Source: a virus. From it: a stretch of DNA of 64,000 bases. A model generated the notes under the pieces. The model searched no databases and was not told the DNA's origin. It saw only the letters and a program-made list of their open reading frames with translations. The position numbers were made by a program, and so were the translations under genes. Below, in pieces: positions 1-48,823 of the stretch. The stretch lies in the IMG/VR virus record IMGVR_UViG_3300027782_000038. The stretch is one strand, 5' to 3'. Numbering within the stretch: position 1 is the stretch's first letter; the number at the start of each line of letters is the position of its first letter.

Positions 1-3000
1 GCTAAAGCAAACTCAGCTAATATACTTGCACAATTGGCCTTTGATAAAGCCAACACTGTTAATGTTTATGCTTATTCAGCAAATACATTCTTACAAGCCA
101 ATGACGTTATCACATTAAGTACTGCACAGACATATACAAATACAACTAATACGGCTATGAAAGCGTATGTTGACCAAGCCAACACCGGATTAAAGTCATA
201 TGTAGACCAAGCCAATACAGGCATGACTTCTTACGTGCTTTCTTCCAATAATGCTGTAACTGGTTATGTAACATCATCTAATACGGCTATGAAAGCCTAT
301 GTTGATCAAGCCAATACTGGAATGGCTTCATATGTGTCTAGCAATGTAACATCAGCCAATACTGCAATGAAGGCATATGTCGATCAGGCTAACACTGGTC
401 TGAAATCGTATGTTGACCAAGCCAACACCGGTATGGCATCTTATGTTTTAGTATCCAATAATGCGGTGTCTGCTTATGTGACTGCTGCTAATACGGCAAT
501 GAAAACATATGTAGACCAAGCCAATACTGGAATGGCTTCATATGTTCTATCGACAAATAATGCTGTATCAGGATATGTGACTTCATCCAACACAGCGATG
601 AAAGCTTATGTTGACCAAGCCAATACAGGCATGGCATCATATGTTCTATCGACAAACAATGCTGTATCTGCTTATGTGACAGCAGCTAATACTGCAATGA
701 AGGCCTATGTCGATCAGGCTAATACTGGTCTAAAGTCATATACAGATGCAACACATTATGCTAAAACTGGTGGTGCCATAACTGGTTCAGTTTCAATTTC
801 GAATGATCTAACAGTTTCAGGCAACTTATTTGTAAATGGTACAGCAACAACAATTAATACTTCATCAATAGTATTAAATGATCCTTTGCTTTATTTGGCA
901 AATAATAATTTTATTTCAGATTCAGTAGATATTGGTTTTGTTGGACATTATAATTCAACAACAAATGCTCATACTGGTTTAATTCGTGATCCTAATCTGA
1001 AAGAATACTTATTTTTTCAAGGTTATACACCAGAAATTGAAGCTAATAATTTAATTAACATAGCAGATCCATCATTTGCATATGCTAACGTTTATGCAGG
1101 TTACTTTAAAGGTAATGTTGTTGCTAGTACAGTGAGAACAAATGGAATAGATGTATTCACATATATAACAGCATCTTTTGATAAAGCCAATACCGTAAAT
1201 GTTTTTACGCAATCTGCATATACTACAGCTAATACAGCAAACTCCAAAGCACAAGGTGCATTTGATTTAGCCAATACTCTAACTGGTGGATCATCAATTG
1301 ACGGATATGCTAGACAAACTGCAAATTCAGCTTTTGATAAAGCCAATACAGTAAACGTATTCACTCAAAGTGCATACTCACAAGCAAACTCTGCAAATAT
1401 ATTAGCACAGGCAGCATTTACTCAAGCTAATACAGTCAACACCTATTCTTACTCAGCTTATAGTACAGCAAATACGGCTGCTGCAAATACTGTGGTTTTA
1501 CAATCAGTAAATGATGTACAAAACACTAACATATCAGCAGCATTTGATAAAGCAAACTCTGCAAATATGCTAGCACAGGCAGCATTTACTCAAGCCAATT
1601 CAGCTAACATATTAGCACAGGCAGCATTTACATTTGCCAATACAGTTAATGTATATTCTTACTCATCTTATAGTACAGCAAACTCAGCACAGTCTAATAC
1701 AATTGTACTACAAGGAATAAATACAACCCAAAACACCTGGATTAGTGCTAATGCTGTGTTTACACAATCGGCATTTACTCAAGCCAATTCAGCTAACATA
1801 TTAGCGCAAGGTGCTTTTACATTTGCTAATACAGTTAATACATATTCTTACTCAGCTTACAGCATAGCAAACTCAGCACAGTCTAATACGGTAATAACCC
1901 AAGGTGTAGATGTTACTCAAAACACCTGGATTAGTTCCAATGCAGTATTCACACAGTCTGCATACAATACCGCTAACACTGCTAATAATACAGCAAATAT
2001 TGCTGCAACAAACATAACAGTATTACAATCAGTAAATATCGTACAAAATACCACTATTGGTGCATCTTTCGACAAAGCAAATAGTGCAAATATTTTAGCA
2101 CAAGCATCATTTACATTTGCTAATACAGTCAATACATATGCTTATTCAGCAAACACCTTCTTACAAGCTAATGACGCTACTACTCTAAGTACTGCACAGA
2201 CATATACAAATACAGCTAATACGGCAATGAAGGCTTATGTCGACCAGGCTAATACTGGTATGGCTTCTTATGTTTTGGCATCAAATAATGCTGTAACTGC
2301 TTATGTGACAGCAGCTAATACTGCAATGAAGGCCTATGTCGATCAGGCTAATACTGGAATGGCATCGTATGTACTTTCTACAAACAATGCTGTATCAGGA
2401 TATGTAACTGCTGCTAATACGGCAATGAAATCTTATGTTGACCAAGCCAATACTGGAATGGCTTCATATGTTTTAGTATCCAATAATGCGGTGTCTGCTT
2501 ATGTGACAGCAGCTAATACGGCAATGAAAGCATATGTAGACCAAGCCAATACTGGAATGGCTTCTTATGTACTTTCTACAAACAATGCTGTATCAGGATA
2601 TGTAACTGCTGCTAATACTGCAATGAAAGCATATGTCGATCAGGCTAATACTGGAATGGCATCGTATGTTTTAGTATCCAATAATGCGGTAACTGGATAT
2701 GTAACTTCTTCCAATACCGCAATGAAAGCGTATGTAGATCAAGCTAACACTGGTCTAAAGTCATATGTAATTCAAGCCAATACAGGCATGGCTTCTTATG
2801 TACTAGCCTCTAATAATGCCGTAACTGCTTATGTGACTGCTTCTAATACGGCAATGAAATCATATGTAGACCAAGCTAATACAGGCATGGCATCGTATGT
2901 GTCTAGCAATGTAATTACTGCTAATACTGCAATGAAGGCCTATGTCGATCAGTCTAATACTGGAATGGCATCATATGTACTTTCTACAAATAATGCTGTA

Positions 3001-6000
3001 ACTGCTTATGTAACTGCTGCTAATACATCCATAAAGGCTTATGTTGACCAAGCCAATACAGGGTTGAAGTCTTACGTTGACCAAGCTAATACAGGCATGG
3101 CTTCTTATGTACTTTCTACAAACAATGCTGTATCGGGATATGTGACAGCAGCCAATACTGCAATGAAAGCATATGTCGATCAGGCTAACACTGGTCTGAA
3201 ATCGTATGTTGACCAAGCCAATACTGGTATGGCTTCATATGTTTTGGCATCAAACAATGCTGTATCCGGATATGTAACTGCTGCTAATACTGCTATGAAG
3301 GCGTATGTCGATCAAGCTAATACTGGTCTTAAATCATATACCGATGCAACTCACTATGCTAAAACTGGTGGAACTATTTCAGGATCGGTATCTGTCACAA
3401 ATGACTTAACTGTATCTGGTAATTTAATTATTAATGGTATTTCAACAACTATTAATACTTCATCAATTGTCGTAAATGATCCATTGATATTTCTTGGAAA
3501 TAATAATACTATTTCCGATACTGTTGATATTGGTATTATAGGACATTACAATGCAACACAAAATGCTCACACTGGTGTTTTTAGAGATGCTACTCTAAAA
3601 GAATGGTTTTTCTTCCAAAATTACACACCAGAAATTCGAGCTAATAATTTAATTAATATTGCTGATCCTACTTTTGTCACAGCTAACGTATATGGTGGAT
3701 TCTTTAAGGGTAATCTTGTAGGTAATACTGCAACAGTTGGTGGTATTGAACTTGGTGCATATAGTCAAGCTGCTTATAGTACAGCAAACTCAGCACAGTC
3801 TAATACTGTAGTACTTCAAGGTGTAAATACTACTCAAAATACTTGGTTAAGTTCTAATGCAGCATTTACACAATCAGCATATACATTTGCTAATACGGTT
3901 AATGTATTTACTCAATCGGCATTTACTCAAGCAAATGCTGCTAACATATTAGCACAAGGTGCATTTACATTTGCTAATACTGTTAACACATATTCGTATT
4001 CTGCTTATAGTACAGCCAATTCAGCACAATCAAATACTGTAGCACTGCAAGGCGTAAACACATCTCAAAACACCTGGATTAGTTCTAATGCAGAATTTAC
4101 TCAATCAGCATATACTTTTGCTAATACTGTAAATGTATTCACTCAATCAGCATTTACTCAAGCAAATACAGCAAACATATTAGCACAAGGTGCATTTACA
4201 TTTGCTAATACTCGGTTAGCGAATACAGGAACCTCAATCACTGTCAATGGTTCATCTCAATTAATTATTGCTAATACACAACCTTCAACAAGTAATGTTA
4301 CTGGTGCTTTGGTTATAAGTGGTGGTTTAGGTGTTGCTGGTAACGTTAAGGTAACAGGAACAAACAATTATTTTGCTGGTAACGTTGCTATTGGATCAAC
4401 CGAATTTATATCTGGTGATATACTGTCAATATATCATGCTACGGCTAGTAATCCATTCATAAGTGGAGATTTGAACACAAACTTAACTGTTCATAGAAGT
4501 TCCACAGATGCCGTTGGTCCAAATATGGTGCTTAGAAAATCCAGAGGAACTATGTCCTCGCAAACATCAGTTATAAGTGGTGATGTGCTTGGTACATATT
4601 TTTTTAGCGGTTATAACGGATCTAGCAATTCAAATGTAGCTCATATTAGAGGTACTATTGGTACATTTACTAGTAATACTAATATCAGCAGTTATGTATC
4701 CGTTTTCACATCTCCAGGAGGTACAGCAACACCTTCAGAAAGTATGCGAATTGCTGGTGGAACAATTTCTCTAGGCGCAGCGCCCGGCTCAGAATCCCTG
4801 CGTGTCACGCCTATTGCTAGTGCGGTAAATTTTCTTGAGGTGTTGGGTGCAAGCACAGGCGTATCTCCGGTTCTACAGTCAACTGGCTCAGATACTAACG
4901 TCAACGCAGTATTTGCCACTAAAGGTACGGGCGCACATTTATTTAGAACAAATGGCAACACTGCCAATACACAGTTTCAAATATCCCACTCAGCCTCAGC
5001 TGTTAATTACCTACAAGTGTCGGGTGCGGCTACAACTGGCGCACCTTATTTATTCTCTACTGGTACTGACACAAATGTAGGTATGCAGGTCTCATCAAAA
5101 GGCACTGCGTCAATATCATTTTTTACAAACACTTTTGCACAGGCTCAATTCAGCATCGCCCACACAGCTTCAGCAGTTAACTATCTGCAAGCAACAGGTG
5201 GGTCTACGGGTAATGCGCCGTTACTTACTGCTCAAGGTTCTGATGCAAATATAAGTTTTACGATGCAAGCAAAAGGCACTGGTAGTTTTTATACCTTTGG
5301 CGCTGGTATGTATTATTACAACCTAGCGTCCGCCCCACAATTTGCGGTGACAAGCACAGCCTCAGCAGTTAACTATTTGCAAGTTACTGGTGGTGTATCA
5401 GGCGGCAGCCCCGTAATTAGCGCACAAGGTACTGATTCAAATATCAATCTTGTATTTGACTCAAAAGGCAGCAACGGACACTTGTTTAGAACTAATGGCG
5501 GTAACCAAACTCAATTCTTTGTAGGACACACTGCCTCAGCGGTTAACTATCTGCAAATAAACGGTAGTGCAACAGGTAATAGAACAAACTTTTACGCTCT
5601 CGGTTCTGACGCAAACGTAGGTATAAATTACAATGCCAAAGGCGCTGAGTACCATGTGTTTACAGCTAACTCTGGTTACGCAAACTTTGTTATTGCGCCT
5701 ACTGTTAATGCCGTAAATCAAATATATGTGACTGGCGGCGCTACGACTGCGGGTGTGAACTTTTCTGCCCAAGGTAGCGATACAAATATCTTCATCACTT
5801 ACGACGCTAAAGGCACAGAGGCGCATAGCTTCAGAACAAACGGTGGTCTGCAACAATTCCGCATTGCACCGACAGCCTCCGCTGTTAATTATTTGCAAGT
5901 AAACGGCAACATAACAAGTGCAGCACCTTTTATGTCTGCACAAGGCTCCGATGCAAACATTGGAATGAGTCTTGTACCAAAGGGTGACAATCCTGTTCAG

Positions 6001-8754
6001 GTTTTAGGGAACGGTCAAGCCGTATCCAGCATTAGTACGTCAGGCGCACTTGGCAGTGCGTTGCTTGTTTCGGATACGGCTGGCGCAGCGGGTAACGGTG
6101 GCTCTGTTGTATTTGGTGCGGCATCAGGCTCATGGCGTTTTGCGGCGATTAAGTCTTATGTAACAAACGGCGCATCAAACTCACAAGGCGATTTGTATTT
6201 CTTAACTCGTCGTAATGCTACAGACGCTAACCTTACGCCTTCTATGCAAATTACATCAAGCGGGGCAGTGTCTTTAGGATATGCGTCTGCGGCATCACAA
6301 CCATCTTTACTTGTCACGCCTGTTGCCAGTGCTGTGAATTATGTTGATGTATGGGGTGGGGCAACAGGAACAGGTGGACGCATTTTTGCAAAAGGTTCTG
6401 ATACAAATATTTCTCTTGAATACATTTCAAAAGGCGGGTCGCCACATACGTTTTACACCGGAACCTCTTCGGCTGTTCAGTTTCGTGTTGCCGACACAGC
6501 CTCCGCAGTTAATTACCTGCAAGTAACAGGCAGCGCAAGCACAACGCCAACCCTTTCAGCACAGGGGTCTAGTGCAGACGTTGATATAGTATTGACACCG
6601 AAAGGTACTGGTGGATTACGGTTTACAGGACCACTTCTACCAAACAACTTGGCAGGCACATCGGGACAAGTCTTAACTTCGGCTGGTGCAGGTGCAGTGC
6701 CAACATGGACATCACCAGCCGTAGGTACGGTTACAGGTGTTACAGCAACGTCTCCTGTTGCATCAAGTGGTGGCGCAGCACCTGTCATCAGTTTAAGCGC
6801 CGCATATGGTGACACAACAAACCCATATGCTTCAAAGACAGCTAACTTTGTGCTTGCAGCACCAAATGGATCCGCAGGAGTTCCTACATTTAGAGCAATT
6901 GTTGCTGCCGATATTCCCACACTTAACCAAAACACAACTGGTTCAGCAGCCACCTTAACAACCATTAGAACCCTTTGGGGACAAAACTTCAATGGTAGTG
7001 CTAACGTTACTGGTGCCATTGCTAGTGTAACAACATTATCAATGAATAACCAGTTGACCAATAGTTTAGCTACTGGTACAGCACCATTTGTAATTACTTC
7101 GACAACAAGAGTTGCAAACTTAAACGTGGCAACTGCTGGTACTGCTGACACCGCCACGACTGCTACAACAGCAACTAGCACACCATACCCTGTATTTTCT
7201 GACGATGCAGTATCAAAAGACAACATTACTACTAGAACAAATAGTGGTTTTTATGAATCTAGCACTGGAACTTTAGCAGAAGGATGGCCCACAGATAGTG
7301 GAGGTTGGCATCATTTGTTATCAACAACACATACTAATGATGCAAATTATTATGCTATGCAATTATCCTCTAGATTTGATACTCAAGATTTTTATTATAG
7401 AGCAACCAATGGATCCGGCACTACTGCTTGGTCAAGAGTTCTATTGAGTACGAATTTTAATAGTTTTTCTCCAACCTTAACGGGAACGGGAGCCAGTGGA
7501 TCATGGGGAATTAACGTAACAGGCTCTGCTGCTACAGCTACAACCGCAACAAACCAATCTGGTGGAACTGTTAGTGCTACAACTGGTTCTTTTTCAGGGA
7601 ATATAGCTTTACCTTCGGGTGCAGGAACAAACGCAATTAAAGCAGGTACGGGAGATGGCGCTTCTTTTACAACATATAATTTAAAAATTAATTCTTGGTA
7701 TGGAATTGGTTTTGGTGATTATCAAGATTTAGCTACTGTTAAAGCCTATATTGATTGTCGAACAGGTAATTACGGAACAAGTGGTCAATTTGTTTCTACA
7801 GTTGCTACTGGCACAGCACCATTTTCAGTTGCTTCTACTACTAGAGTGGCAAATCTAAACGTTGCAACTGCTGGTACTGCTGACACCGCAACAACTGCCA
7901 CAACTGCCACAACTGCTACAACCGCAACAAACCAATCTGGTGGAACTGTTAGTGCTACTACTGGCTCGTTTAGCGGATTATTAATAGGTGCCTCATCAGC
8001 CGCAACAAACGTTAATACTGCTAATGACACTGGATCTTTTTCTGTTAGAGGTAATACCAGCACAATCGCTTCAATGTCCTTCCATAGAACTGGTGCATAC
8101 GCAATTAACATGGGATTAGGTACGGATAATATATTCCGTATTGGGGGATGGTCGGCTTCAAACGATTGTTTGCAATTAACAGGCACAGGAAACTTAACAA
8201 CTCTGGGTACCATAACATCCGGCGGGAGTTTAACAGTATTAGGAACAACATCACTAGGAGCCGCAGCAGGATCAGAATCCCTACGTGTCACGACTGTTGC
8301 TAGTTCAGTTAACTACCTGCAAGTAGAAGGAAGTGCAAGCACTACACCAACACTTTCTGCACAAGGTTCTGGTGCAAATGTTGATATAATATTGACACCA
8401 AAAGGCAGCGGTTATGTTGTCATTGACTCAGCATACTCACCAAACCTGACACTAACAGATGCAGCTACAATTACTTGGGATACTAGTACAGCGGGTGGTC
8501 AAGTGGCAACGTTTACATTTGTATCTACAAATAGAACAATGGGCGCACCAACAAACTTAAAGAATGGAGGTTTTTATGCTTTAGCTGTAATCCAAAATGC
8601 TGGTAGTAACACGTTGACTTGGAACTCAGTATTTAAGTGGGCGGCGGGTGTTGCACCTACATTGTCTACAACAGCAGGGGCTAAAGACTACTTCACATTC
8701 CGATCTGATGGCACAAACCTTTATCAACAAGGTATCTCACAGGCGGTGGCATAA
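1..8754 (+). CDS. Giant repetitive tail fibre / virion fibre protein (5'-truncated, >2900 aa)
   Basis: Frame is open from base 1. Contains ANTAMKAYVDQANTG helical repeats, ~50-aa TASAVNYLQV..G..AQGSD.NI...KG repeats and tail-fibre-like knob motifs (MSFHRTGAYA..GL..DN..RIGGWS). Lies upstream of the neck genes. Confidence 0.75.
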   Translation, partial: AKANSANILAQLAFDKANTVNVYAYSANTFLQANDVITLSTAQTYTNTTNTAMKAYVDQANTGLKSYVDQANTGMTSYVLSSNNAVTGYVTSSNTAMKAYVDQANTGMASYVSSNVTSANTAMKAYVDQANTGLKSYVDQANTGMASYVLVSNNAVSAYVTAANTAMKTYVDQANTGMASYVLSTNNAVSGYVTSSNTAMKAYVDQANTGMASYVLSTNNAVSAYVTAANTAMKAYVDQANTGLKSYTDATHYAKTGGAITGSVSISNDLTVSGNLFVNGTATTINTSSIVLNDPLLYLANNNFISDSVDIGFVGHYNSTTNAHTGLIRDPNLKEYLFFQGYTPEIEANNLINIADPSFAYANVYAGYFKGNVVASTVRTNGIDVFTYITASFDKANTVNVFTQSAYTTANTANSKAQGAFDLANTLTGGSSIDGYARQTANSAFDKANTVNVFTQSAYSQANSANILAQAAFTQANTVNTYSYSAYSTANTAAANTVVLQSVNDVQNTNISAAFDKANSANMLAQAAFTQANSANILAQAAFTFANTVNVYSYSSYSTANSAQSNTIVLQGINTTQNTWISANAVFTQSAFTQANSANILAQGAFTFANTVNTYSYSAYSIANSAQSNTVITQGVDVTQNTWISSNAVFTQSAYNTANTANNTANIAATNITVLQSVNIVQNTTIGASFDKANSANILAQASFTFANTVNTYAYSANTFLQANDATTLSTAQTYTNTANTAMKAYVDQANTGMASYVLASNNAVTAYVTAANTAMKAYVDQANTGMASYVLSTNNAVSGYVTAANTAMKSYVDQANTGMASYVLVSNNAVSAYVTAANTAMKAYVDQANTGMASYVLSTNNAVSGYVTAANTAMKAYVDQANTGMASYVLVSNNAVTGYVTSSNTAMKAYVDQANTGLKSYVIQANTGMASYVLASNNAVTAYVTASNTAMKSYVDQANTGMASYVSSNVITANTAMKAYVDQSNTGMASYVLSTNNAVTAYVTAANTSIKAYVDQANTGLKSYVDQANTGMASYVLSTNNAVSGYVTAANTAMKAYVDQANTGLKSYVDQANTGMASYVLASNNAVSGYVTAANTAMKAYVDQANTGLKSYTDATHYAKTGGTISGSVSVTNDLTVSGNLIINGISTTINTSSIVVNDPLIFLGNNNTISDTVDIGIIGHYNATQNAHTGVFRDATLKEWFFFQNYTPEIRANNLINIADPTFVTANVYGGFFKGNLVGNTATVGGIELGAYSQAAYSTANSAQSNTVVLQGVNTTQNTWLSSNAAFTQSAYTFANTVNVFTQSAFTQANAANILAQGAFTFANTVNTYSYSAYSTANSAQSNTVALQGVNTSQNTWISSNAEFTQSAYTFANTVNVFTQSAFTQANTANILAQGAFTFANTRLANTGTSITVNGSSQLIIANTQPSTSNVTGALVISGGLGVAGNVKVTGTNNYFAGNVAIGSTEFISGDILSIYHATASNPFISGDLNTNLTVHRSSTDAVGPNMVLRKSRGTMSSQTSVISGDVLGTYFFSGYNGSSNSNVAHIRGTIGTFTSNTNISSYVSVFTSPGGTATPSESMRIAGGTISLGAAPGSESLRVTPIASAVNFLEVLGASTGVSPVLQSTGSDTNVNAVFATKGTGAHLFRTNGNTANTQFQISHSASAVNYLQVSGAATTGAPYLFSTGTDTNVGMQVSSKGTASISFFTNTFAQAQFSIAHTASAVNYLQATGGSTGNAPLLTAQGSDANISFTMQAKGTGSFYTFGAGMYYYNLASAPQFAVTSTASAVNYLQVTGGVSGGSPVISAQGTDSNINLVFDSKGSNGHLFRTNGGNQTQFFVGHTASAVNYLQINGSATGNRTNFYALGSDANVGINYNAKGAEYHVFTANSGYANFVIAPTVNAVNQIYVTGGATTAGVNFSAQGSDTNIFITYDAKGTEAHSFRTNGGLQQFRIAPTASAVNYLQVNGNITSAAPFMSAQGSDANIGMSLVPKGDNPVQVLGNGQAVSSISTSGALGSALLVSDTAGAAGNGGSVVFGAASGSWRFAAIKSYVTNGASNSQGDLYFLTRRNATDANLTPSMQITSSGAVSLGYASAASQPSLLVTPVASAVNYVDVWGGATGTGGRIFAKGSDTNISLEYISKGGSPHTFYTGTSSAVQFRVADTASAVNYLQVTGSASTTPTLSAQGSSADVDIVLTPKGTGGLRFTGPLLPNNLAGTSGQVLTSAGAGAVPTWTSPAVGTVTGVTATSPVASSGGAAPVISLSAAYGDTTNPYASKTANFVLAAPNGSAGVPTFRAIVAADIPTLNQNTTGSAATLTTIRTLWGQNFNGSANVTGAIASVTTLSMNNQLTNSLATGTAPFVITSTTRVANLNVATAGTADTATTATTATSTPYPVFSDDAVSKDNITTRTNSGFYESSTGTLAEGWPTDSGGWHHLLSTTHTNDANYYAMQLSSRFDTQDFYYRATNGSGTTAWSRVLLSTNFNSFSPTLTGTGASGSWGINVTGSAATATTATNQSGGTVSATTGSFSGNIALPSGAGTNAIKAGTGDGASFTTYNLKINSWYGIGFGDYQDLATVKAYIDCRTGNYGTSGQFVSTVATGTAPFSVASTTRVANLNVATAGTADTATTATTATTATTATNQSGGTVSATTGSFSGLLIGASSAATNVNTANDTGSFSVRGNTSTIASMSFHRTGAYAINMGLGTDNIFRIGGWSASNDCLQLTGTGNLTTLGTITSGGSLTVLGTTSLGAAAGSESLRVTTVASSVNYLQVEGSASTTPTLSAQGSGANVDIILTPKGSGYVVIDSAYSPNLTLTDAATITWDTSTAGGQVATFTFVSTNRTMGAPTNLKNGGFYALAVIQNAGSNTLTWNSVFKWAAGVAPTLSTTAGAKDYFTFRSDGTNLYQQGISQAVA
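58..3720 (+). repeat. Duplicated module and tandem ANTAMKAYVDQANTG repeats in the fibre gene
   Basis: The module YAYSANTFLQAND...(KAYVDQANTG)n...YTDATHYAKTGG...GHYN...YTPEI.ANNLINIADP occurs twice (~58-1130 and ~2130-3720) with near-identical DNA repeats. Confidence 0.9.
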
Positions 8755-12106: not shown

Positions 12107-12541
12107 ATGAATACTTTTGATAAGAATATGGAAAAAATATTTGATGTGGTACCTGTTGAAGAAAAAAAGACTCAGGTAATTACAACAAAATATAATGAAC
12201 CCACAGATATGCAACAGGATTTAAATGATGCATACCAACAGTCAAGAGAAAATCTCCAAGGTATTATTGACCAAGGCCAAGAAGCCATGGCAGAAATATT
12301 AGAAATTGCAAAACAAGGCCAACATCCTAGAGCATTTGAAGTCTACGGTACACTACTTAAAAATATGGTAGATGCTAATAAAGAACTACTAAACATACAA
12401 AAACAAATGCGTGATATGGATAATGTAAAGAAAGAAGTAAATAACACTAATATTGACCAAGCTATTTTTGTTGGTAGCACAGAAGAATTGAATAAATTAC
12501 TAAAGAATAATAATGAAAAAAAAGTTATAGATATGAATTAA
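12107..12541 (+). CDS. gp16: Terminase small subunit gp16
   Basis: HPRAFEV and IFVGST.EL motifs; upstream of gp17. Confidence 0.9.
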   Translation: MNTFDKNMEKIFDVVPVEEKKTQVITTKYNEPTDMQQDLNDAYQQSRENLQGIIDQGQEAMAEILEIAKQGQHPRAFEVYGTLLKNMVDANKELLNIQKQMRDMDNVKKEVNNTNIDQAIFVGSTEELNKLLKNNNEKKVIDMN

Positions 12542-13305
12542 ATCCATTTACATTCATAACCCTTATGTTTTTTTTGTTTCCCCCTGGCAACGGTCATCAT
12601 TGATTGATAATTTAAATTATTATCTATACAATATTGTTTCAGATTATCCGTAACAACAATATTACCATTTAGATCTATTACATTACAAATTTTATTGTTT
12701 AATGGTGGAATTCTTTTATTATCTGGTCTATCGTTATATTTTGATTTTGGATCAGACCAATATAATTTTCTTGTATCTGACATTTTTTGTTTAAATACAA
12801 CGGTATTGCAAGAGTCTTTATGTTTTTTAATATAATTCAAATTTTTATATATTGAATTTTCTTTTTTATGGTTTTCTTTCATTTTGTTGGATTGTTTTTT
12901 CTTTACTTCAGGTTTGTTTTTACCATCAATTTGTTTTTTTCTATATTCATCAGAATTAATATACGAATTTTTATCTTTATGTAATTGAATCATTAAATCA
13001 CTTTTTAATTTTTTTGATATTTCATATTGTTTGTTTGTAATTTTAATATCATTACTGTTAGACATTCTATGAAAAGCGTGTATCATTTTATGTTTTGGTG
13101 ATCCTATTAACATTTTTGTTAATAGATGATGTACAGTATAATGTTCTTTGGAAGTTAAATACACCAAATTTTCTTTGTCATTTGAACCACCTAAAGATTC
13201 TGGTATAATATGATGTTTTTCGGTGTAACTATTAGGTTTGGACCTAGTTTTGGCTGCATTGATTATGTCATTATACCAATGAGTATATTTGTTATCTAAA
13301 TACAT
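12538..13305 (-). CDS. Free-standing HNH homing endonuclease (MobE-like, with NUMOD-type C-terminus)
   Basis: YTEKHHIIPESLGGSNDKENLVYLT.KEH...H motif; antisense insertion between gp16 and gp17. Confidence 0.88.
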   Translation of the reverse strand: MYLDNKYTHWYNDIINAAKTRSKPNSYTEKHHIIPESLGGSNDKENLVYLTSKEHYTVHHLLTKMLIGSPKHKMIHAFHRMSNSNDIKITNKQYEISKKLKSDLMIQLHKDKNSYINSDEYRKKQIDGKNKPEVKKKQSNKMKENHKKENSIYKNLNYIKKHKDSCNTVVFKQKMSDTRKLYWSDPKSKYNDRPDNKRIPPLNNKICNVIDLNGNIVVTDNLKQYCIDNNLNYQSMMTVARGKQKKHKGYECKWI

Positions 13306-13373
13306 TTGCTGGCATTCCTATAAAATGTTAGAGTGTATGCGGTCTGAACACCGTCGATACACACCTATTTATA
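13306..13373 (-). promoter_or_regulatory. Late promoter plus structured 5' leader of the HNH gene (copy 1)
   Basis: Minus strand reads TATAAATA GGTGTGTATCGACGGTGTTCAGACCGCATACACTCTAACATTTTATAGGAATGCCAGCAA ATG; homologous to 39683-39756. Confidence 0.7.
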
Positions 13374-13394
13374 TTATCAAGGAATTAAATAATA

Positions 13395-15065
13395 GTGGCA
13401 ACATCAAAACAGACGTATAGGGATAATCCCCGATTAAAAAGGGTTGGTGTACCAGTTAATTGGACACCAGAGTTAGTTGAAGAATATAAAAAATGTAAAG
13501 AAGATTACATCTATTTTTCGAAATATGTAACCATTATCTCTCTAGATAAAGGTATTGTACCTTTTAATATGTACGATTTTCAAAAGGACATGATTAAAAC
13601 CTTTGATGAAAATCGTTTTGTTATCGTTAAATGTCCTCGTCAGGTTGGTAAAACCACAACAGCAGTTACATATCTTCTTTGGACAATACTATTCAAGTCT
13701 GCACAAAACATTGCAATTCTGGCCAACAAAGGTAAAACAGCAAACGATATTCTAGGTAAGTTACAATTAGCCTATGAATCAATACCTATCTGGATGCAAC
13801 AAGGTGTCGTTGAATGGAACAAAGGCCGTGTTGAATTAGAAAACAATTCAGTTATTATTGCCAACTCAACATCATCATCTGCTGCTCGTTCTGGTGCATA
13901 CAACATCGTATTCTTGGACGAATTTGCGTTCGTTCCTTCTAACATTGCATATGACTTCTTGACTTCTGTTTATCCTGTTATTACATCAGGTACCAAAACC
14001 AAGATTCTAATGGTATCTACACCAAACGGCATGAATCTGTTTTATAAATTATGGAATGATGCTGTCAATAAAAGAAATGATTATGTACCATTTGAAATTC
14101 ATTGGTCTCAGGTTCCAGGTCGAGATGAAGAATGGAAAGAACAAACCATTCGCAATACATCAGAACACCAGTTCAGACAAGAATTTAACACAGAATTCTT
14201 AGGTTCAACTAATACTCTGATTTCTGGTACCAAATTACAACAGTTGACATATAAACAACCGATTGCCGAACATGATGGTGTTAAGATTTATGAATATCCA
14301 ATCAAAGGTGATGATGACAACAAGAAAGATCACCTCTATGGTATTTGGGTGGACGTTTCAGAAGGTAAGAATTTAGACTCCTCTACATTCTCCGTCATTG
14401 ATATGTCTACTACACCTTACAGACAAGTAGCTACATATAAAGACCCCACCGTGTCTCCTATGTTGTTCCCTACACACATATACAATGCAGCTAAATTGTA
14501 TAATGATGCCTATATTTTGATAGAGATCAATAATACACCACAAGTGGCTGACATTATTCACCAAGACCTTGAGTATGAAAACTTATTTAAGGTATTTACC
14601 GGTAATAAAAAACCACAACAGTTGTCGGCTGGTTTTGCCAGAGGTGTACAGTTAGGTGTCAAAATGTCACCACAAGTTAAAAGAATTGGTTGTTCAAACC
14701 TAAAAATGCTTATAGAAGGCAATAAACTGGAGTTGGTTGATTTTGATACCATATCAGAACTAACTACATTTGTTGCAAATAAAACTTCCTTTGCGGCCGA
14801 AGCGGATGCAAATGATGATTTGGTTATGGGATTGGTTATGTTTGCGTGGGCATCCACTCAAAAATATTTCAGAGAAATTGTTAACCATGATTTGAGAAAA
14901 CAAATTCAACTTGAAAATATGAATCAAGTTGATGAGTTATCACCACCTACACCTATGATGGATAATGGAATAGAAACTAATTTTGATGTATGGGACGATG
15001 ATGTGTGGGAGAAAGCAGATGGTGGTGAGGTTTACTCTGGTTATTTTAGAGAATTGTCCAGATAA
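13395..15065 (+). CDS. gp17: Terminase large subunit gp17
   Basis: Walker A PRQVGKTT, Walker B FLDEFAF, STPNG.N.FY, nuclease DVSEG and DDLVM motifs. Confidence 0.97.
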   Translation: MATSKQTYRDNPRLKRVGVPVNWTPELVEEYKKCKEDYIYFSKYVTIISLDKGIVPFNMYDFQKDMIKTFDENRFVIVKCPRQVGKTTTAVTYLLWTILFKSAQNIAILANKGKTANDILGKLQLAYESIPIWMQQGVVEWNKGRVELENNSVIIANSTSSSAARSGAYNIVFLDEFAFVPSNIAYDFLTSVYPVITSGTKTKILMVSTPNGMNLFYKLWNDAVNKRNDYVPFEIHWSQVPGRDEEWKEQTIRNTSEHQFRQEFNTEFLGSTNTLISGTKLQQLTYKQPIAEHDGVKIYEYPIKGDDDNKKDHLYGIWVDVSEGKNLDSSTFSVIDMSTTPYRQVATYKDPTVSPMLFPTHIYNAAKLYNDAYILIEINNTPQVADIIHQDLEYENLFKVFTGNKKPQQLSAGFARGVQLGVKMSPQVKRIGCSNLKMLIEGNKLELVDFDTISELTTFVANKTSFAAEADANDDLVMGLVMFAWASTQKYFREIVNHDLRKQIQLENMNQVDELSPPTPMMDNGIETNFDVWDDDVWEKADGGEVYSGYFRELSR

Positions 15066-37284: not shown

Positions 37285-37853
37285 GTGATGTGATTACCTT
37301 CAATACTGAAGATTTGGCCAAGCCAGTCACAGTAAAAACAGAACCAAAAGTATTCACCTTAGTTGGTGAAGATAACCCGATTTTAAAACAGGTGTTACCT
37401 GAATTTGATTTCAGTAATCCACCTGTTAATCCAAATGAGTTTGCATCAACATTAGTGGAAACTTGTAAATTACATCATGGTATTGGGTTATCTGCCAACC
37501 AATGTGGATTTCCATACCGTGTATTTGTGATGGGTGCTGGTGAAGAATATGTGGCATTTTACAATCCGAATCTGATTGACCAATCAGATAATGAGGTACA
37601 CATCATTGAAGGTTGCCTTTCTTTTCCGTTCTTAGGATTACGGATTACAAGGCCAGAAAGTGTTCAGGTAGAATACCAAGACTTCAATGGTGTTAAACGT
37701 GAGACTACTCTGTATGGCATATCTGCAAGATGTTTTCTGCATGAGCTTGACCATATGAACGGAATCGTGTATACTGAGAGAGTCAAACCCTTGGCATTAG
37801 AATTGGGTCTCAAGAAACGTAATAAATTGATGAAGAAGATTAGACTTAAATAA
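37281..37853 (+). CDS. def: Peptide deformylase
   Basis: GIGLSANQCG, EGCLS and HELDH motifs. Confidence 0.93.
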   Translation: MSDVITFNTEDLAKPVTVKTEPKVFTLVGEDNPILKQVLPEFDFSNPPVNPNEFASTLVETCKLHHGIGLSANQCGFPYRVFVMGAGEEYVAFYNPNLIDQSDNEVHIIEGCLSFPFLGLRITRPESVQVEYQDFNGVKRETTLYGISARCFLHELDHMNGIVYTERVKPLALELGLKKRNKLMKKIRLK

Positions 37854-39112
37854 TGGCTACACCACTTGAATTTGTAGAGAAACAATGGCAAGAATGGCAA
37901 GAGACTAATACCGAAACAGAACACGTTGATGTTGAGGTAATGAAAGAAAAACTTATTGCTGATCTAACTTATGCTTCTCAGATGGATGTTCGTGAATATA
38001 CTTTATACCAGAAATGGTGTGAAGTCAAAGAACGTTATCCTGTTCATACTATCAATACACTATTTGGAGAAGAACTTCAGATGGTTGATAGTGAACAAGA
38101 GAAACTCATTAAGGATGTTAAATCTAAATTCTGGATGCCTAAAGATCCAGATGATTATGCCAAATTAAAACCAATTATGGTTCTTTCTAATGGTGATCTT
38201 GCTGAAAGGTGGAATGCCGTTAGAACTTTTTCTTCTACAATGAAGAATAACTCTAATATCGGCCGTAACTTATTTTACACAGTTGTAGATGAAGTTACCG
38301 GCAAGTATCTAGGTGTTATCTGCATTTCTTCTGACTTCTTAGACCTTACACCTAGAGATAACGCAATAGGATGGTCTAGGGACGTTAAGACACAGCAACA
38401 TATGATCAATCATACAGCAATTGGTTCCACCATCGTTCCACTACAACCCTTAGGATTTAATTACATGGGTGGAAAACTATTGGCGCTGATGTGTTTATCT
38501 GATACAGTTCAGAAAGATTGGAAAAGACAATATGGAGATACGTTGGTAGCAGTTACAACTACATCTTTATATGGAAAGACTAAGACTGGAGGACTCTCTC
38601 AGTACGATGGACTTGAACATTGGAACGCTATGGGTTTCTCATCAGGTTCTGTAGCTTTTGAACCATCTAGACAAACTAAGAAATTAGTGTTTAATTGGAT
38701 CAAAGAGAATTATCCACGGAAGTATTTTGAGTGGTGGGAAGCCAAGAATACACAAGGTTTACCACTTAAGCGTGACCACAAAAACCGTTCATTGAATTTT
38801 GCATATGGTAAATTAGAAATACCAAAAAACTTAATTCGTACCGAACATCAACGTGGAATCTATTTTTCACCACTCTATAATAACACCAATGAATTTCTAA
38901 GGAAAGAAATTGGTGATGATCAACTGGTAAAGTCGTTTGATACCAGTGAAGAATCTTTGGCAAATATTTGGAAAACAAAATACGCTAAACCAAGAATTAG
39001 ACAGCTCAAAAAGAAAGATAAAGTATCCTATGAAACATTGTTTTACTCGGATTTAATATTTTTAAGTTGGGAGGAAACAAAATCCAAATACCTAGGACAG
39101 GTTGGTCGCTAA
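37853..39112 (+). CDS. DUF4338 / DruA-like protein, paralog 1
   Basis: GRNL...V.D...GKYLG.I.I.S, RD..IGW, VP.QP.GFNY.GGKLLA and TTSLYG...SQYDG motifs. Confidence 0.6.
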   Translation: MATPLEFVEKQWQEWQETNTETEHVDVEVMKEKLIADLTYASQMDVREYTLYQKWCEVKERYPVHTINTLFGEELQMVDSEQEKLIKDVKSKFWMPKDPDDYAKLKPIMVLSNGDLAERWNAVRTFSSTMKNNSNIGRNLFYTVVDEVTGKYLGVICISSDFLDLTPRDNAIGWSRDVKTQQHMINHTAIGSTIVPLQPLGFNYMGGKLLALMCLSDTVQKDWKRQYGDTLVAVTTTSLYGKTKTGGLSQYDGLEHWNAMGFSSGSVAFEPSRQTKKLVFNWIKENYPRKYFEWWEAKNTQGLPLKRDHKNRSLNFAYGKLEIPKNLIRTEHQRGIYFSPLYNNTNEFLRKEIGDDQLVKSFDTSEESLANIWKTKYAKPRIRQLKKKDKVSYETLFYSDLIFLSWEETKSKYLGQVGR

Positions 39113-39682
39113 TAATTTATTTAACTGCCATTTAGTTAAATTTAACTCTTTCATTGCTTGTCGTTTATGAGTATAAAAAATTCCGTTTATGGTAACCGGT
39201 ATTGCTTTAGGATGATTTTTACCTGATATTGATACTGATAAATTTTTCAAATGAGATTCAGAAAAAGGTTTTCTTTTTTTACCTATTTTTCCTTTTGAAA
39301 TATTTTCACACCAATTCACGGAGTGTTTTCTACCTTTAACCTTATTGGTTCTTTTTTGTATTTGTTCTTTACTATGTTTGAATCCTAAAATACCATCACC
39401 ACCTAAAGTCGAATTGTAACCTTCCGTAAAAGAATTAAATTGTTCTATGAAATAGGCTTCCATAATTTTAAGTGTGTGGTTTCCATCGACTGATTGATAC
39501 ATTAATTCCCAATCAAATTTATCCCAACCATATTTACAAATAGCGTTATAAAATTTGGACTTTGTTTTTTTATGTTGTGATTTGTGGTATCTTTTACGGT
39601 TTGGCCAGTTAGAATCAAAGCCAATATAAACTTTACCATTAATGGTATTTGTGGCTTTATATATTGAATATATACTTGACAT
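39092..39682 (-). CDS. GIY-YIG homing endonuclease (Seg-like, NUMOD3)
   Basis: SIYKATNTINGKVYIG, E..FI, GYNSTLGGDG and HS.E repeats. Confidence 0.9.
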   Translation of the reverse strand: MSSIYSIYKATNTINGKVYIGFDSNWPNRKRYHKSQHKKTKSKFYNAICKYGWDKFDWELMYQSVDGNHTLKIMEAYFIEQFNSFTEGYNSTLGGDGILGFKHSKEQIQKRTNKVKGRKHSVNWCENISKGKIGKKRKPFSESHLKNLSVSISGKNHPKAIPVTINGIFYTHKRQAMKELNLTKWQLNKLLATNLS

Positions 39683-39756
39683 TAGCTGTGTTTCCTGTTA
39701 AAATATGAACATAGAGTAGGTAGGAGCTCCAACTCCGTGACCTACACCTATTTATG
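39683..39756 (-). promoter_or_regulatory. Late promoter plus structured 5' leader of the GIY-YIG gene (copy 2)
   Basis: Minus strand reads CATAAATA GGTGTAGGTCACGGAGTTGGAGCTCCTACCTACTCTATGTTCATATTTTAACAGGAAACACAGCTA ATG; homologous to 13306-13373. Confidence 0.7.
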
Positions 39757-39795: not shown

Positions 39796-39824
39796 TTGAC
39801 AAAAGACATACATAATGTTATGAT
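39796..39824 (+). promoter_or_regulatory. Sigma70-type promoter
   Basis: TTGACA-17-TATGAT with extended -10 TG. Confidence 0.65.
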
Positions 39825-39878: not shown

Positions 39879-40151
39879 ATGACTAAATTATCCGCAAAAG
39901 AAAAAATGTTGAACGCACTTCAGAAAACTGAAGGTTACAACACTTTCACCGTAGCACAAGCGCAACGCCGTTTTGGTATTCAAAATGTATCTGCTCGTAT
40001 TGATGAACTTCGTTCAGAAGGTCATTGCATCTACACTAACACTAAAACTTCACAAGATGGTCGCAAAGTAAGCTTCTATCGTTTGGGTAAACCATCCCGT
40101 GAGATGGTTAAAGCTGCGTCACAAATCGCACGCCACGCTTTCTACGCTTAA
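39879..40151 (+). CDS. Winged helix-turn-helix DNA-binding protein
   Basis: A...FGI....ARI.ELR..G..I.T......G..V..Y.L pattern; has its own promoter and terminator. Confidence 0.65.
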   Translation: MTKLSAKEKMLNALQKTEGYNTFTVAQAQRRFGIQNVSARIDELRSEGHCIYTNTKTSQDGRKVSFYRLGKPSREMVKAASQIARHAFYA

Positions 40152-40167: not shown

Positions 40168-40195
40168 AGGGAGTCCTAGGACTCCCTTTTTGTTT
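40168..40195. terminator. Terminator between converging genes
   Basis: Perfect palindrome AGGGAGTCCTAGGACTCCCT followed by a T tract. Confidence 0.8.
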
Positions 40196-40782
40196 TATAA
40201 CCTACGACAGAAATATTTTTTACAATGTTTAGATTTACCGTTAACAACTTTCATCATATTACCCTGATCTAAATTATTTTCTATGCAAAATCTTCTAAGA
40301 TTTCTTATGTTAAAAGTATTACCGGCCGGATCTGTTATTTCCCATTCTTTGGATATTTTATCGCCATATCGTAACATACTTTCAAATAATTTATTTTTGG
40401 TTTCTTGACTTTTAATTTTACCTTTTTGTGCAATGGACATTTTATTTCGAGTTGTTTTGTTTCTAAAAACACCTTTAGTTCCTTCTCCACCATAAGTCAT
40501 GTTATAACCAAAACCAAATTTATAATGTGTATTATCTTGTCTTATAAAATATTCTTCATAATCTTTAATGTGATCTTCATATAATGATTGATAAACTATT
40601 TCTTTATTAAAATTATGCCAACCATATTTTCTTATAGCTCTATGTAAAATTGTATTGTAAGATGGTTGATTTTTATTATAAGATTCTGTATAATGTTGAT
40701 TAAACCTATTTTCGGCGTCATATGAATATCCAAAATAAGATTTATTGTTAATTGTGTTTGTTATTTTGTATATATAAAACAT
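40195..40782 (-). CDS. GIY-YIG homing endonuclease (NUMOD3 plus C-terminal HTH)
   Basis: YIYKITNTINNKSYFG, RF.QH, AIRKYG and GYNMTYGGEG motifs; minus-strand TATAAATA at 40818-40825. Confidence 0.9.
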   Translation of the reverse strand: MFYIYKITNTINNKSYFGYSYDAENRFNQHYTESYNKNQPSYNTILHRAIRKYGWHNFNKEIVYQSLYEDHIKDYEEYFIRQDNTHYKFGFGYNMTYGGEGTKGVFRNKTTRNKMSIAQKGKIKSQETKNKLFESMLRYGDKISKEWEITDPAGNTFNIRNLRRFCIENNLDQGNMMKVVNGKSKHCKKYFCRRL

Positions 40783-40835
40783 AATTGTTGAATTAATTTA
40801 GAGTAGTATTGATGTATTATTTATAAGGAATATTT

Positions 40836-41654
40836 ATGGAAATTAGTATAAAAACAGAAGAATTAAAAAGTAAATCCATTTTTTGTGCAACACCAATGTA
40901 TGGTGGTATGAACCACGGACTTTACATGAAAGCTTGCCTTGATTTACAAGGTATGTGTATGCAGTATGGTATTCAAATTAAATTCTCATTTTTATTCAAT
41001 GAGTCATTAATTACCCGTGCTAGAAATTATCTCGTAGATGAATTTATTCATCGTTCAGACTGTACACATTTATTGTTTTTAGATTCGGACATTAGCTTTA
41101 ATCCGCAAGATGTTATTGCAATGTTGGCCTTAGATAAAGATGTTATTGGTGGTCCTTATCCAAAGAAAGCCATCAAGTGGCGTTCTGTTGCAAAAGCTTT
41201 AGAAAAGAATCCTCAAATGGATCACTCTATGCTTGAGAAAGTTGCTGGTGATTTCGTATTCAATCCAGTAAAAGGTACTGCACAATTTTCAGTTTCAGAA
41301 CCTTTGTCTGTTCTTGAAATTGGTACTGGTTTCATGATGGTTAAACGTGAAGTCTTTGCTAAGATGACTGAAGAATATCCAACAATTCGATATAAACCAG
41401 ATCATGTTGGCCAAGCAAACTTTGATGGTTCACGTTACATTCACGCTTTCTTTGATACTGTGATTGACACCAAAGAATCTATTACTGGTGGTGGTTCAGA
41501 TCGTTACTTGTCAGAAGATTATATGTTCTGTCAAATGTGGCGTAAAATGGGTGGAGAAATCTTCTTGTGTCCTTGGATGAGAACTGCACACATTGGTACG
41601 TATCACTTCCAAGGTGATATGCCTGCTGTGGCAAATTTTGTCGGAGAAATGTAA
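40836..41654 (+). CDS. GT-A-fold glycosyltransferase-like protein
   Basis: ATPMYGG, SLITRARN, THLLFLDSDI (DxD), GTGFMMVKR and LSEDY.FC motifs. Confidence 0.7.
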   Translation: MEISIKTEELKSKSIFCATPMYGGMNHGLYMKACLDLQGMCMQYGIQIKFSFLFNESLITRARNYLVDEFIHRSDCTHLLFLDSDISFNPQDVIAMLALDKDVIGGPYPKKAIKWRSVAKALEKNPQMDHSMLEKVAGDFVFNPVKGTAQFSVSEPLSVLEIGTGFMMVKREVFAKMTEEYPTIRYKPDHVGQANFDGSRYIHAFFDTVIDTKESITGGGSDRYLSEDYMFCQMWRKMGGEIFLCPWMRTAHIGTYHFQGDMPAVANFVGEM

Positions 41655-45461: not shown

Positions 45462-45506
45462 TATAAATAGAACTGTAGATGCCTTCGGGGTCTACAGTTT
45501 TTTTTT
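45462..45506 (+). promoter_or_regulatory. Late promoter and UUCG hairpin leader of hsp20
   Basis: TATAAATA, then AACTGTAGAT-GCCTTCGGG-GTCTACAGTT and a T tract. Confidence 0.55.
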
Positions 45507-45534
45507 GACAACTCGCTTAATTTAAGGGGAACTT

Positions 45535-46760: not shown

Positions 46761-46835
46761 CTGGCGTTCGTATAGTGGACAATACAGTAGGCTTCTACCC
46801 TTCTAACGGGAGTTCGATTCTCTCACGCCGGACCA
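46761..46835 (+). tRNA. tRNA-Arg(TCT)
   Basis: Cloverleaf; loop CT-TCT-AC, TTCGATT T-loop, CCA. Confidence 0.85.
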
Positions 46836-46845
46836 AAGGATTATT

Positions 46846-47265
46846 ATGTTAGAATGTTTGATTTTAGGTGATAGTATTGCAGTTGGTACTAAAATGTTTA
46901 TGCCACAATGCGAATTACAAGGCAAAGGTGGAATTAACACATGGCAGTTTAATAAGATGTATCCAGGTAGTTTTTATGCAGATACAGTTATTATTAGTCT
47001 TGGTTCAAACGATCACAAATATGTTAAAAGCTATGATGAACTGTTTGAAATTCGCCAACGTGTCGGTGCTAAAAATGTATTTTGGATTTTACCGCATGGT
47101 AATCTTAAAGCACCACAAAACTTACCAGTTGATGAGATTCAAAAAATTGTACGTAATATAGCCGAATACTATGGTGATACGGTGTTACCTATTCGAGGTA
47201 TTAGTACCGACAATATTCATCCTACGGGTAGTGGTTATAAAGATATTGTAACACGGGTTAAATAA
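46846..47265 (+). CDS. SGNH/GDSL-type hydrolase-like protein
   Basis: LILGDSI, LGSND and DNIHP (DxxH) blocks. Confidence 0.75.
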   Translation: MLECLILGDSIAVGTKMFMPQCELQGKGGINTWQFNKMYPGSFYADTVIISLGSNDHKYVKSYDELFEIRQRVGAKNVFWILPHGNLKAPQNLPVDEIQKIVRNIAEYYGDTVLPIRGISTDNIHPTGSGYKDIVTRVK

Positions 47266-47319
47266 TTATGTATAATTAAAAAGAAAGAGATAGAAGATAT
47301 TATAAAAGGTTGTTTTAGT

Positions 47320-47398
47320 GGGCCTATAGCTCAGTCTGGTTAGCAGCAATCGTCTCATAAACGATAGGTCATGGGTTCAAATCCCGTTGGGCCCACCA
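47320..47398 (+). tRNA. tRNA with CAT anticodon, probably Ile2 (lysidine-modified)
   Basis: Ile-like body GGGCCTATAGCTCAG; loop CT-CAT-AA, CCA. Confidence 0.85.
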
Positions 47399-47434
47399 AA
47401 ACATCTTTTTAACTAACGCAGTAAAATGATTTTT

Positions 47435-47517: not shown

Positions 47518-47529
47518 AAAGGATATATT

Positions 47530-48621: not shown

Positions 48622-48657
48622 TGTTATATTGAATGAATTAAAACAAAAGGAAATATC

Positions 48658-48821: not shown

Positions 48822-48823
48822 CC

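Follow-up and report, generated by a model that had tools for sequence, protein, structure and literature searches.

A covarying late-promoter leader of homing endonuclease genes in T4-like phages, possibly read on both strands

Two unrelated homing endonuclease genes in a 64,000-nucleotide (nt) stretch of an uncultured T4-like phage (IMG/VR virus record IMGVR_UViG_3300027782_000038; the whole stretch is called the window hereafter) are preceded by copies of one structured module of roughly 70 bases, which belongs to a family found in uncultured freshwater T4-like phages upstream of several kinds of endonuclease genes and folds more stably on the strand opposite the nuclease gene than on the nuclease strand. 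On the nuclease strand, the module consists of an ATAAATA late promoter, GGTGT, a first hairpin (H1), ACTCTA, a second hairpin (H2) around the Shine-Dalgarno sequence, CAGC, 2 nt, and ATG. The copies, at 13303-13373 and 39680-39755, both lie on the minus strand, before an HNH and a GIY-YIG gene, respectively, as an earlier interpretation of the letters alone (the sequence-only reading) had reported. We suggest, at a probability of about 0.45, that the module is a face-to-face promoter pair with a structured overlap, working on both strands, whose antisense transcript would restrain the nuclease and serve a divergent host gene.

To the question of how selfish nuclease genes stay tolerable to the phage genomes that they invade, the known answers are single hairpins, studied gene by gene. 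One homologous, exceptionally well-covarying module for many nuclease families amounts to a large set of natural mutants and would make a clean Rfam model; in phage metagenomes, its covariance model can serve to mark endonuclease cassettes or what is left of them. Should the opposite-strand reading hold, antisense transcription and outward promoters join the ways in which homing endonucleases limit their own cost; this would explain why most cassettes are antisense to their neighbors. Promoter information would, moreover, be written into the first codons of the gene through the choice of rare codons.

A portable leader family

We scanned IMG/VR with a pattern made up of the promoter, GGTGT, a gap of 22-30 nt, and ACTCTA, and found the cassette in at least 119 contigs. 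Among the 121 matches listed, the gap is 26 nt in 85 and 27 nt in 23, and most form the H1 hairpin. A covariance model trained on 32 equal-length members, none of them from the window, scores 72.5 bits for copy 1 and 58.8 bits for copy 2, the next best match in the window reaching 11.7 bits. The sequence-only reading had proposed such a model and a metagenome search as a check for further homologs; in the fetched loci the model found 105 sites, four of which the pattern had missed. In what follows, family statistics rest on 80 unique members, folding on 78, and Pfam assignments on 72 linked open reading frames (ORFs).

The cargo is diverse. Among the linked ORFs, Pfam matches comprise GIY-YIG (28, plus three of the SegE type), HNH (five), HNH_3 (three), NUMOD3 (30), and AP2 (two); I-TevI-type DNA-binding domains are also present, and several ORFs have no Pfam match. 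The module lies directly upstream of the nuclease gene and in sense orientation, the exception being a remnant at locus L060, described below. These observations support a portable late promoter with a structured leader that moves independently of the nuclease family, and both propositions, drawn originally from the two window copies, extend to the family at large.

No Rfam 15 family reaches the gathering threshold over the copies (in the window, only tRNAs pass), and a match that would remove the novelty of the leader was thus not found; at E ≤ 10, the best sub-threshold matches over both copies are to unrelated families (E 0.16-10). Isolate phages in INPHARED gave no true match, either by megablast of both loci or by blastn of a consensus-like leader. 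A near-identical pattern (gap 24-30) applied to 596 Gb of bacterial and archaeal genomes returned 56 matches with flat gap lengths and no hairpins; these are chance matches, with no real member among them.

Structure and covariation on the nuclease strand

Exactly 26 nt separate GGTGT from ACTCTA in either window copy. The copies share only 8 of these 26 bases, yet H1 has one shape in both: two helices of 4 base pairs (bp) with a 3x1 internal loop between them, closed by a 6-nt loop. Across the family, H1 is built of 4 bp, an internal loop in which an invariant C-R-C faces one pyrimidine, 4 bp, and a loop of 6-7 nt, and RNAalifold recovers it. In the alignment of the 32 members, 95.5% of the cells pair, 14 of the 20 pairs change on both sides, and no pair varies one-sidedly. 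None of 500 shuffles reaches the observed pairing values, and shifting the partner by 1-3 columns cuts pairing to 31-48%. The leader therefore covaries, as had been proposed from two copies. The outer stem does so as described, but to call the inner stem merely kept was an understatement, since it covaries completely as well. Indeed, the eight variable pairs of H1 are Watson-Crick in all 80 unique members (640 pairs, no wobble).

ACTCTA and CAGC, noted as identical in the two copies, are invariant across the family. H1 always has a purine as its first variable base, where, by analogy with T4, the late transcript is predicted to start. H2 encloses the Shine-Dalgarno sequence in both copies, as the sequence-only reading had it, and covaries, yet with a mean of only -1.1 kcal/mol it is weak on the nuclease strand, where A.C mismatches are frequent. 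The H1 core sequences of the two copies have no other occurrence in the window at three or fewer mismatches, and H1 thus has no complementary target in the rest of the window. A lower stem on this strand proposed by RNAalifold (TAGG-T-GT with AC-TCTA) is unsupported, because members with A or T at the first G, or with insertions of 2-3 nt, leave ACTCTA unchanged.

The opposite strand folds more tightly

When the same 19 pairs are read on either strand, standard pairs account for 90.0% on the nuclease strand versus 99.5% on the opposite strand. The R:Y pair of the H1 internal loop is distributed as G-C 39, A-T 19, A.C 21, and G.T 0, and the cells of H2 on the nuclease strand comprise 355 Watson-Crick pairs, 54 A.C or C.A, and only three G.U. 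These deviations are one-sided, an A.C mismatch of the nuclease strand corresponding to a G.U wobble in its complement. H1 being strictly Watson-Crick and H2 having its wobble only on the opposite strand, the pattern suggests that H1 folds on both strands and H2 mainly on the opposite one.

Folding energies point the same way. With the core from GGTGT to CAGC folded both ways, all 78 members gave the opposite strand the lower free energy (mean -19.1 versus -14.9 kcal/mol), and the z-score of that strand against dinucleotide shuffles is lower in 76 of 78 (-2.63 versus -1.10). For copy 1, the minimum free energy is -17.4 kcal/mol (z -2.58) on the opposite strand versus -14.3 (z -1.46) on the nuclease strand; for copy 2, the values are -18.7 versus -15.7 kcal/mol. 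The asymmetry is present both in cassettes antisense to their neighbors and in co-directional ones. On the opposite strand H2 extends to 8 bp, the complements of CAG and CTA pairing as C-G, U-A, and G.U, and comes to lie one base from H1; this pairing explains part of the invariance of CAGC and ACTCTA. As modeled, then, the opposite strand takes up the tighter structure, two adjacent hairpins over ~60 nt.

Antisense promoter motifs in the first codons

Motifs of the sigma-70 type scoring at least 10.5 of 12.5 occur on the antisense strand of 22 of the 80 members and on the sense strand of three. Antisense ATAAATA is present in 39 of 80, exactly 5 nt from CAGC in 34 of these, against a background of 0.3% per 19-nt window; a further 11 members have antisense ATATATA, and seven have nothing.

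The sigma-70-type motifs involve the first codons. All 13 leaders of type II, a class with a longer H2 that includes window copy 2, carry TTGACA-17 nt-TAnnnT on the opposite strand; the -35 is formed by Met-Ser-Ser codons peculiar to type II, and the -10 lies in the H2 loop, where positions 1, 2, and 6 (T1, A2, T6) are invariant and positions 3-5 vary. A subgroup of GIY-YIG genes starting with Met-Ile-Ile-Tyr has a perfect or near-perfect antisense TTGACA-17-TATAAT, with the -10 derived from ATT-ATA and the -35 from the Val-Asn codons GTC-AAY. All eight cases have GTC as the Val codon at the -35, whereas GTC makes up only 11 of the 184 Val codons of these genes; between the hexamers, synonymous sites vary. 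In sister genes with AAT-ATT and ACA-AAT, the sigma-70 motif is lost and antisense ATAAATA is created. Judging from this codon use, the sigma-70-type motifs appear to be held in place by rare codons.

All start sites given here derive from T4 and E. coli promoter geometry. The starts predicted for the opposite strand place a hairpin at the 5' end of the RNA or a few bases from it, and H1 is likewise at the predicted 5' end of the late nuclease mRNA. Two further candidates were rejected for the commonest type I leaders: a sigma-70 promoter, as no -35 accompanies the -10-like TACAAT of the H2 loop, and a middle promoter, as the spacing of the MotA box is unfit (judged by eye).

Gene context

The cassette is antisense to both neighbors in 34 loci and co-directional with them in 15. 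A divergent upstream gene starts 1-36 nt past the promoter. Sigma-70 motifs are accompanied by a divergent upstream gene in 12 cases and by a co-directional one in a single case, and the divergent genes are of early type: primase, replicative helicase (two), UvsX, a DNA-binding protein, and deoxyribonucleotidase (two). At least this class of motif thus resembles an outward promoter for a host gene. Late-type antisense motifs are found in both divergent and co-directional cassettes, beside early-type as well as late-type genes.

In L060, a leader stands without a nuclease ORF (about 755-826, minus strand), with promoter, H1, ACTCTA, and H2 intact up to CAG. It is upstream of the same clamp-loader gene as the cassette of L024, which has a nuclease, and the piece retained is the unit that is structured on the opposite strand.

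A reading on both strands and its alternatives

In the arrangement that we favor, the nuclease strand would supply the late promoter, the 5' hairpin H1, the Shine-Dalgarno sequence within a weak H2, and the start codon. The opposite strand, we infer, would be transcribed either from late-type or sigma-70-type promoters that the opening codons of the nuclease gene contain, or through transcription continuing from host genes, which is plausible because most cassettes are antisense to their neighbors. The two transcripts would overlap, each starting with a hairpin, and the antisense transcript would be fully complementary to the nuclease leader, in type I including the Shine-Dalgarno sequence. 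It could act in two ways. First, pairing of the antisense transcript over the ribosome site and interference between the convergent promoters would keep the nuclease low, as IS10 RNA-OUT does for its target. Second, where a divergent host gene lies just upstream, the antisense transcript would provide its promoter and a stabilizing 5' leader, and the insertion would thereby be tolerable. The cis-regulatory leader RNA of the sequence-only reading stands as to cassette and structure, but the strand asymmetry and the antisense promoter motifs make a purely sense-strand interpretation incomplete.

Several points weigh against this arrangement. There is no clear antisense promoter in 18 of the 80 members, and the late-type antisense motifs coincide with conserved Ile-Tyr codons, whose coding role may account in part for the conservation of the motifs. 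Nor do late-type antisense promoters match the timing class of the neighbor, an idea that we dropped on finding no enrichment next to late genes. On the plus strand, no terminator-like site follows the opposite-strand form of H1 (H1'), whose tail is three bases and then an interrupted U run; a discrete small RNA is hence not predicted. The sole RNA data, from two lake metatranscriptomes, are unstranded and consist of one 151-nt contig each (13107-13296); both contigs fall inside the first 200 nt of the HNH gene and none over the leader, and they have no bearing on strand, start, or level. The invariance of the unpaired C-R-C, ACTCTA, CAGC, and GGTGT goes beyond pairing alone and suggests a binding factor. 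Finally, the perfect complementarity of H1 and the occurrence of its loops in both orientations could partly reflect hairpin-templated mutation of DNA instead of selection on RNA.

A more specific proposal is that a dedicated cis-antisense RNA controls the nucleases. Its promoter would lie in the first four to twelve codons, and its two hairpins would be complementary to the 5' end and the ribosome site of the mRNA, giving self-restraint of the RNA-OUT kind; the hypervariable H1 stem would confer a specificity of its own on each of the cassettes present together in a phage, and the outward promoter would have been co-opted for flanking host genes. We regard this version as rather unlikely.

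We also think it unlikely, to a slightly greater degree, that the module is a leader of the sense strand only, with H1 protecting the 5' end of the late mRNA, H2 partly masking the Shine-Dalgarno sequence and so holding a toxic nuclease at a low level, and the opposite strand functionless. Such a leader would be expected to sit always directly upstream of the nuclease gene in sense orientation, with late promoter, Shine-Dalgarno sequence, and ATG correctly ordered, as it does; the constant purine at the first variable base of H1 fits a start site, and hairpin-regulated late expression is established for homing endonucleases of the T4 family (PMC2988022; PMC3014915). It leaves unexplained, however, why the mismatches are nearly all A.C (75 or more) rather than G.U (three), why the opposite strand pairs at 99.5% and is the more stable in every member folded (78/78), and why antisense promoters are encoded by rare codons. 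Moreover, H2 is very weak on the sense strand (about -1.1 kcal/mol on average), and both of its arms are downstream of the predicted start, so that the classical early/late switch cannot operate.

That the module serves only its neighbor, as a leader and outward promoter that is read on the strand of the host genes and maintains expression of the adjoining one after insertion, with no regulation of the nuclease, would account for the roughly 2:1 excess of antisense cassettes, the short distance (1-36 nt) to divergent genes, the link between sigma-70 motifs and divergent early genes, and the solo leader of L060, to which a similar hairpin retained at a nuclease-less locus may be compared (Dassa et al. 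2009; PMC2677866). This is nevertheless improbable: Co-directional cassettes, in which that strand is not read for any host gene, show the asymmetry just as strongly, the late-type antisense motifs have no correspondence with the neighbor's timing class, and the element never occurs apart from a nuclease cassette or its remnant.

The loops of H1 bear on another explanation. They are variable and fall into reverse-complement pairs (TTGCCG/CGGCAA, TTGCAG/CTGCAA, TTCCCG/CGGGAA, TTGGCG/CGCCAA; the window loops are at 13345-13350 and 39728-39733), and it seems from these sequences that the loop was flipped repeatedly between otherwise similar hairpins, as happens at DNA hairpins prone to template switching. 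Loop inversion of this kind, the 640 perfectly complementary H1 pairs without wobble on either strand, the invariant flanks around a hypervariable stem, and the sharing of the cassette by unrelated nuclease genes could all be expected of an element acting as DNA, either a cruciform or hairpin quasi-palindrome that is a hot spot of recombination or template switching and shuffles promoters, or a protein-binding site. We nonetheless give this explanation little credence, because correction of a palindrome would erase the conserved asymmetric internal loop, recognition of double-stranded DNA does not predict one-strand wobble in H2 or the CAG/CTA pairing, and the arms are too variable for a sequence-specific dimeric binding site. 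A small self-cleaving ribozyme or a pseudoknot, which the sequence-only reading had entertained and which the invariant single-stranded GGTGT, C-R-C, ACTCTA, and CAGC between covarying helices might recall, is most improbable, given that no Rfam ribozyme matches at E ≤ 10, that the loops are variable and loop-to-CAGC pairing is not conserved, and that promoter-proximal sequence and opposite-strand pairing largely account for the invariant blocks.

Relation to known systems

A late promoter with a regulatory hairpin controls I-TevI, I-TevII, I-TevIII, T4 segB, and Aeh1 mobE, and a strong hairpin lies upstream of the ribosome site of seg43(25) in Aeromonas phage 25 (Edgell, Gibb and Belfort 2010, PMC2988022; Uzan and Miller 2010, PMC3014915). 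The present module shares with these a T4-type late promoter directly upstream of an endonuclease gene, a hairpin between promoter and start codon, and, presumably, late and low expression; as in seg43(25), the strong hairpin is upstream of the ribosome site and does not cover it. In the classical I-TevI/mobE type, the promoter is inside the 5' arm of the hairpin that sequesters the ribosome site, so that late transcripts are freed from it. Here, in contrast, both arms of the weak H2 are at least 33 nt downstream of the promoter, and H1 abuts the promoter and does not contain the ribosome site. With the ribosome-site hairpin wholly downstream of the late start predicted from T4, the classical switch does not apply. 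The hairpins of the T4 family are also gene-specific, whereas here one homologous cassette serves more than 100 genes of several nuclease families and is better folded on the opposite strand.

The closest precedent comes from metagenomic T4-like loci. Dassa et al. (2009; PMC2677866) describe, from "fractured gene" loci of ocean surveys, hairpins that precede free-standing endonucleases of the GIY-YIG and Vsr-like kinds and that occur also at one locus without an endonuclease; the hairpins include TATAAATA and a pair of conserved motifs complementary to each other. Those hairpins resemble ours in being 5' untranslated, in having a late promoter and paired motifs, and in being common to endonuclease families; covariation statistics, a second hairpin, strand asymmetry, and antisense promoters are not reported there. 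The published hairpins may be the present family or a relative of it. Novelty is accordingly lower than the sequence-only reading claimed, TATAAATA hairpins upstream of two endonuclease families having been published in 2009 (PMC2677866). What appears to be new is the definition of the family, its bias toward the opposite strand, and the antisense promoter motifs embedded in codons; the kind of element was already known.

Control by antisense RNA in cis is familiar from genes of mobile elements and phages, as in IS10 RNA-OUT/RNA-IN, phage P22 sar, and plasmid R1 CopA/CopT, and RNA-OUT keeps expression of the IS10 transposase low. In these systems, promoters face each other across the 5' end of the target, and the ribosome site is complementary to an antisense RNA with a stable stem-loop; bulges or internal loops interrupt the stems, and the stem-loop sequence varies between copies. 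Our module is similar in its stable conserved stem-loops predicted on the antisense strand. Motifs of candidate opposite-strand promoters, fixed in part by rare codons, are present in 61-62 of the 80 members. It differs in that no clear terminator is predicted, that the target is a homing endonuclease, and that in some members the antisense promoter appears to serve a neighboring host gene. A literature search on antisense RNA control of homing endonucleases found no relevant report.

T4-type phages also harbor PeSL cassettes, in which a sigma-70 early promoter and a terminator stem-loop flank small non-essential genes (Arbiol et al. 2010, PMC2839356; Comeau et al. 2014, PMC4122927). Both are small, portable, conserved combinations of promoter and stem-loop tied to gene shuffling in T4-type genomes. 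Our module, however, invariably carries a nuclease gene as cargo; its cargo-strand promoter is of the late type, and its hairpin lacks a T-run. The term "late promoter" is absent from Comeau et al. (2014; PMC4122927), where homing endonucleases are mentioned solely as another, independent means of transferring genes.

The window and its genes

The window phage is T4-like, with a G+C content of 35.7%, 25 tRNA genes, and T4-type terminase genes, whose closest matches, in cyanophages and a Methylophilales phage, are only ~51% identical. Isolate phages gave no close DNA match to the window, and the DNA runs that contain the phage are freshwater or lake metagenomes. ATAAATA occurs upstream of the tail sheath, tail tube, scaffold, and major head genes, and is thus, by analogy with T4, the probable late promoter motif of this phage. 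Nearly all genes are on the plus strand; the minus-strand genes identified are the three homing endonuclease genes listed in Table 1 with the parts of the two leaders.

Table 1. Coordinates of leader elements and minus-strand endonuclease genes in the window
Feature	Position	Strand	Basis or remark
Copy 1 late promoter, TATAAATA	13373-13366	-	Sequence; motif invariant in family
Copy 1 GGTGT	13365-13361	-	Sequence
Copy 1 H1, 26 nt (GTAT/CGA/CGGT/loop GTTCAG/ACCG/C/ATAC)	13360-13335	-	Sequence, covariance model, and fold
Copy 1 ACTCTA linker, invariant	13334-13329	-	Sequence and family alignment
Copy 1 H2, 17 nt, enclosing Shine-Dalgarno AGGA	13328-13312	-	Sequence, covariation, and fold
Copy 1 CAGC, invariant; 2-nt spacer; ATG of HNH gene	13311-13308; ATG 13305-13303	-	Sequence and model
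Copy 1 opposite-strand form: 8-bp H2', 1-nt linker, H1'	13308-13365	+	Predicted fold; 20-30 nt upstream of terL start
Copy 1 CTAAATA, late-promoter-like (6/7)	13296-13302	+	Candidate by motif; 5 nt from CAGC as in family, other reading frame
Copy 2 late promoter core ATAAATA	39755-39749	-	Sequence and model
Copy 2 GGTGT	39748-39744	-	Sequence
Copy 2 H1 (AGGT/CAC/GGAG/loop TTGGAG/CTCC/T/ACCT)	39743-39718	-	Sequence, model, and fold
Copy 2 ACTCTA, invariant	39717-39712	-	Sequence and family alignment
Copy 2 H2, longer, type II (TGTT...AACA), around Shine-Dalgarno	39711-39689	-	Sequence and model
Copy 2 CAGC; 2-nt spacer; ATG of GIY-YIG gene	39688-39685; ATG 39682-39680	-	Sequence
Copy 2 sigma-70-type promoter motif, TTGACA-17 nt-TAAAAT with TG	39676-39704	+	11/12 consensus matches
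HNH homing endonuclease gene, 255 aa	12538-13305	-	Pfam HNH, E=1.9e-5; antisense between small and large terminase subunit genes
GIY-YIG homing endonuclease gene, 196 aa	39092-39682	-	Pfam GIY-YIG, E=1.5e-5; antisense to neighbors
Third GIY-YIG gene	40195-40782	-	Degenerate leader at 40783-40837 (-)

The neighbors of the HNH gene match Pfam DNA_Packaging and Terminase_6N/6C. Upstream of the third GIY-YIG gene are two tandem ATAAATA (TATAAATA is kept; 40783-40831) and, 13 nt downstream of them, ACTCTA; this leader has no GGTGT, H1, H2, CAGC, or obvious Shine-Dalgarno sequence and is not detected by the covariance model. It looks like a degenerate relative whose structured part has apparently been deleted. 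An HNH endonuclease gene within the tRNA cluster (51217-51806, plus strand) has a plain late promoter and Shine-Dalgarno sequence without the leader, so the cassette is not used by every endonuclease gene of this phage.

Both endonuclease insertions with an intact leader are extremely tight at either end, the 3' ends of the ORFs overlapping those of convergent host genes by 4 nt (12538-12541) and 21 nt (39092-39112). A contig from a second freshwater DNA run joins 12421 to 13629, with only 21 nt on the shorter side of the joint; it omits the HNH cassette together with the adjoining parts of both terminase genes (the end of the small one, the start of the large one), and may represent a nuclease-free allele of a related phage. 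The gene adjoining the GIY-YIG cassette (37853-39112, plus strand) matches Pfam DruA, a Druantia defense protein (E=2.5e-22). On the other side, a second strong sigma-70-type motif, TTGACA-17-TATGAT (39796-39824, plus strand), lies upstream of a small HTH gene (39879-40151), which by these motifs would be served by a tandem of two early-type promoters, the endonuclease cassette containing one of them.

Elsewhere on the plus strand, a TATAAATA motif at 45463-45510 is followed by a G+C-rich canonical hairpin and nine T, which, unlike H1, has the look of a true terminator. The 25 tRNA genes are interspersed with small ORFs at 46761-54582, among them a dCMP deaminase gene (47488-47958), and a single ORF of 2906 aa (34-8754) fills the first 8.7 kb of the window.

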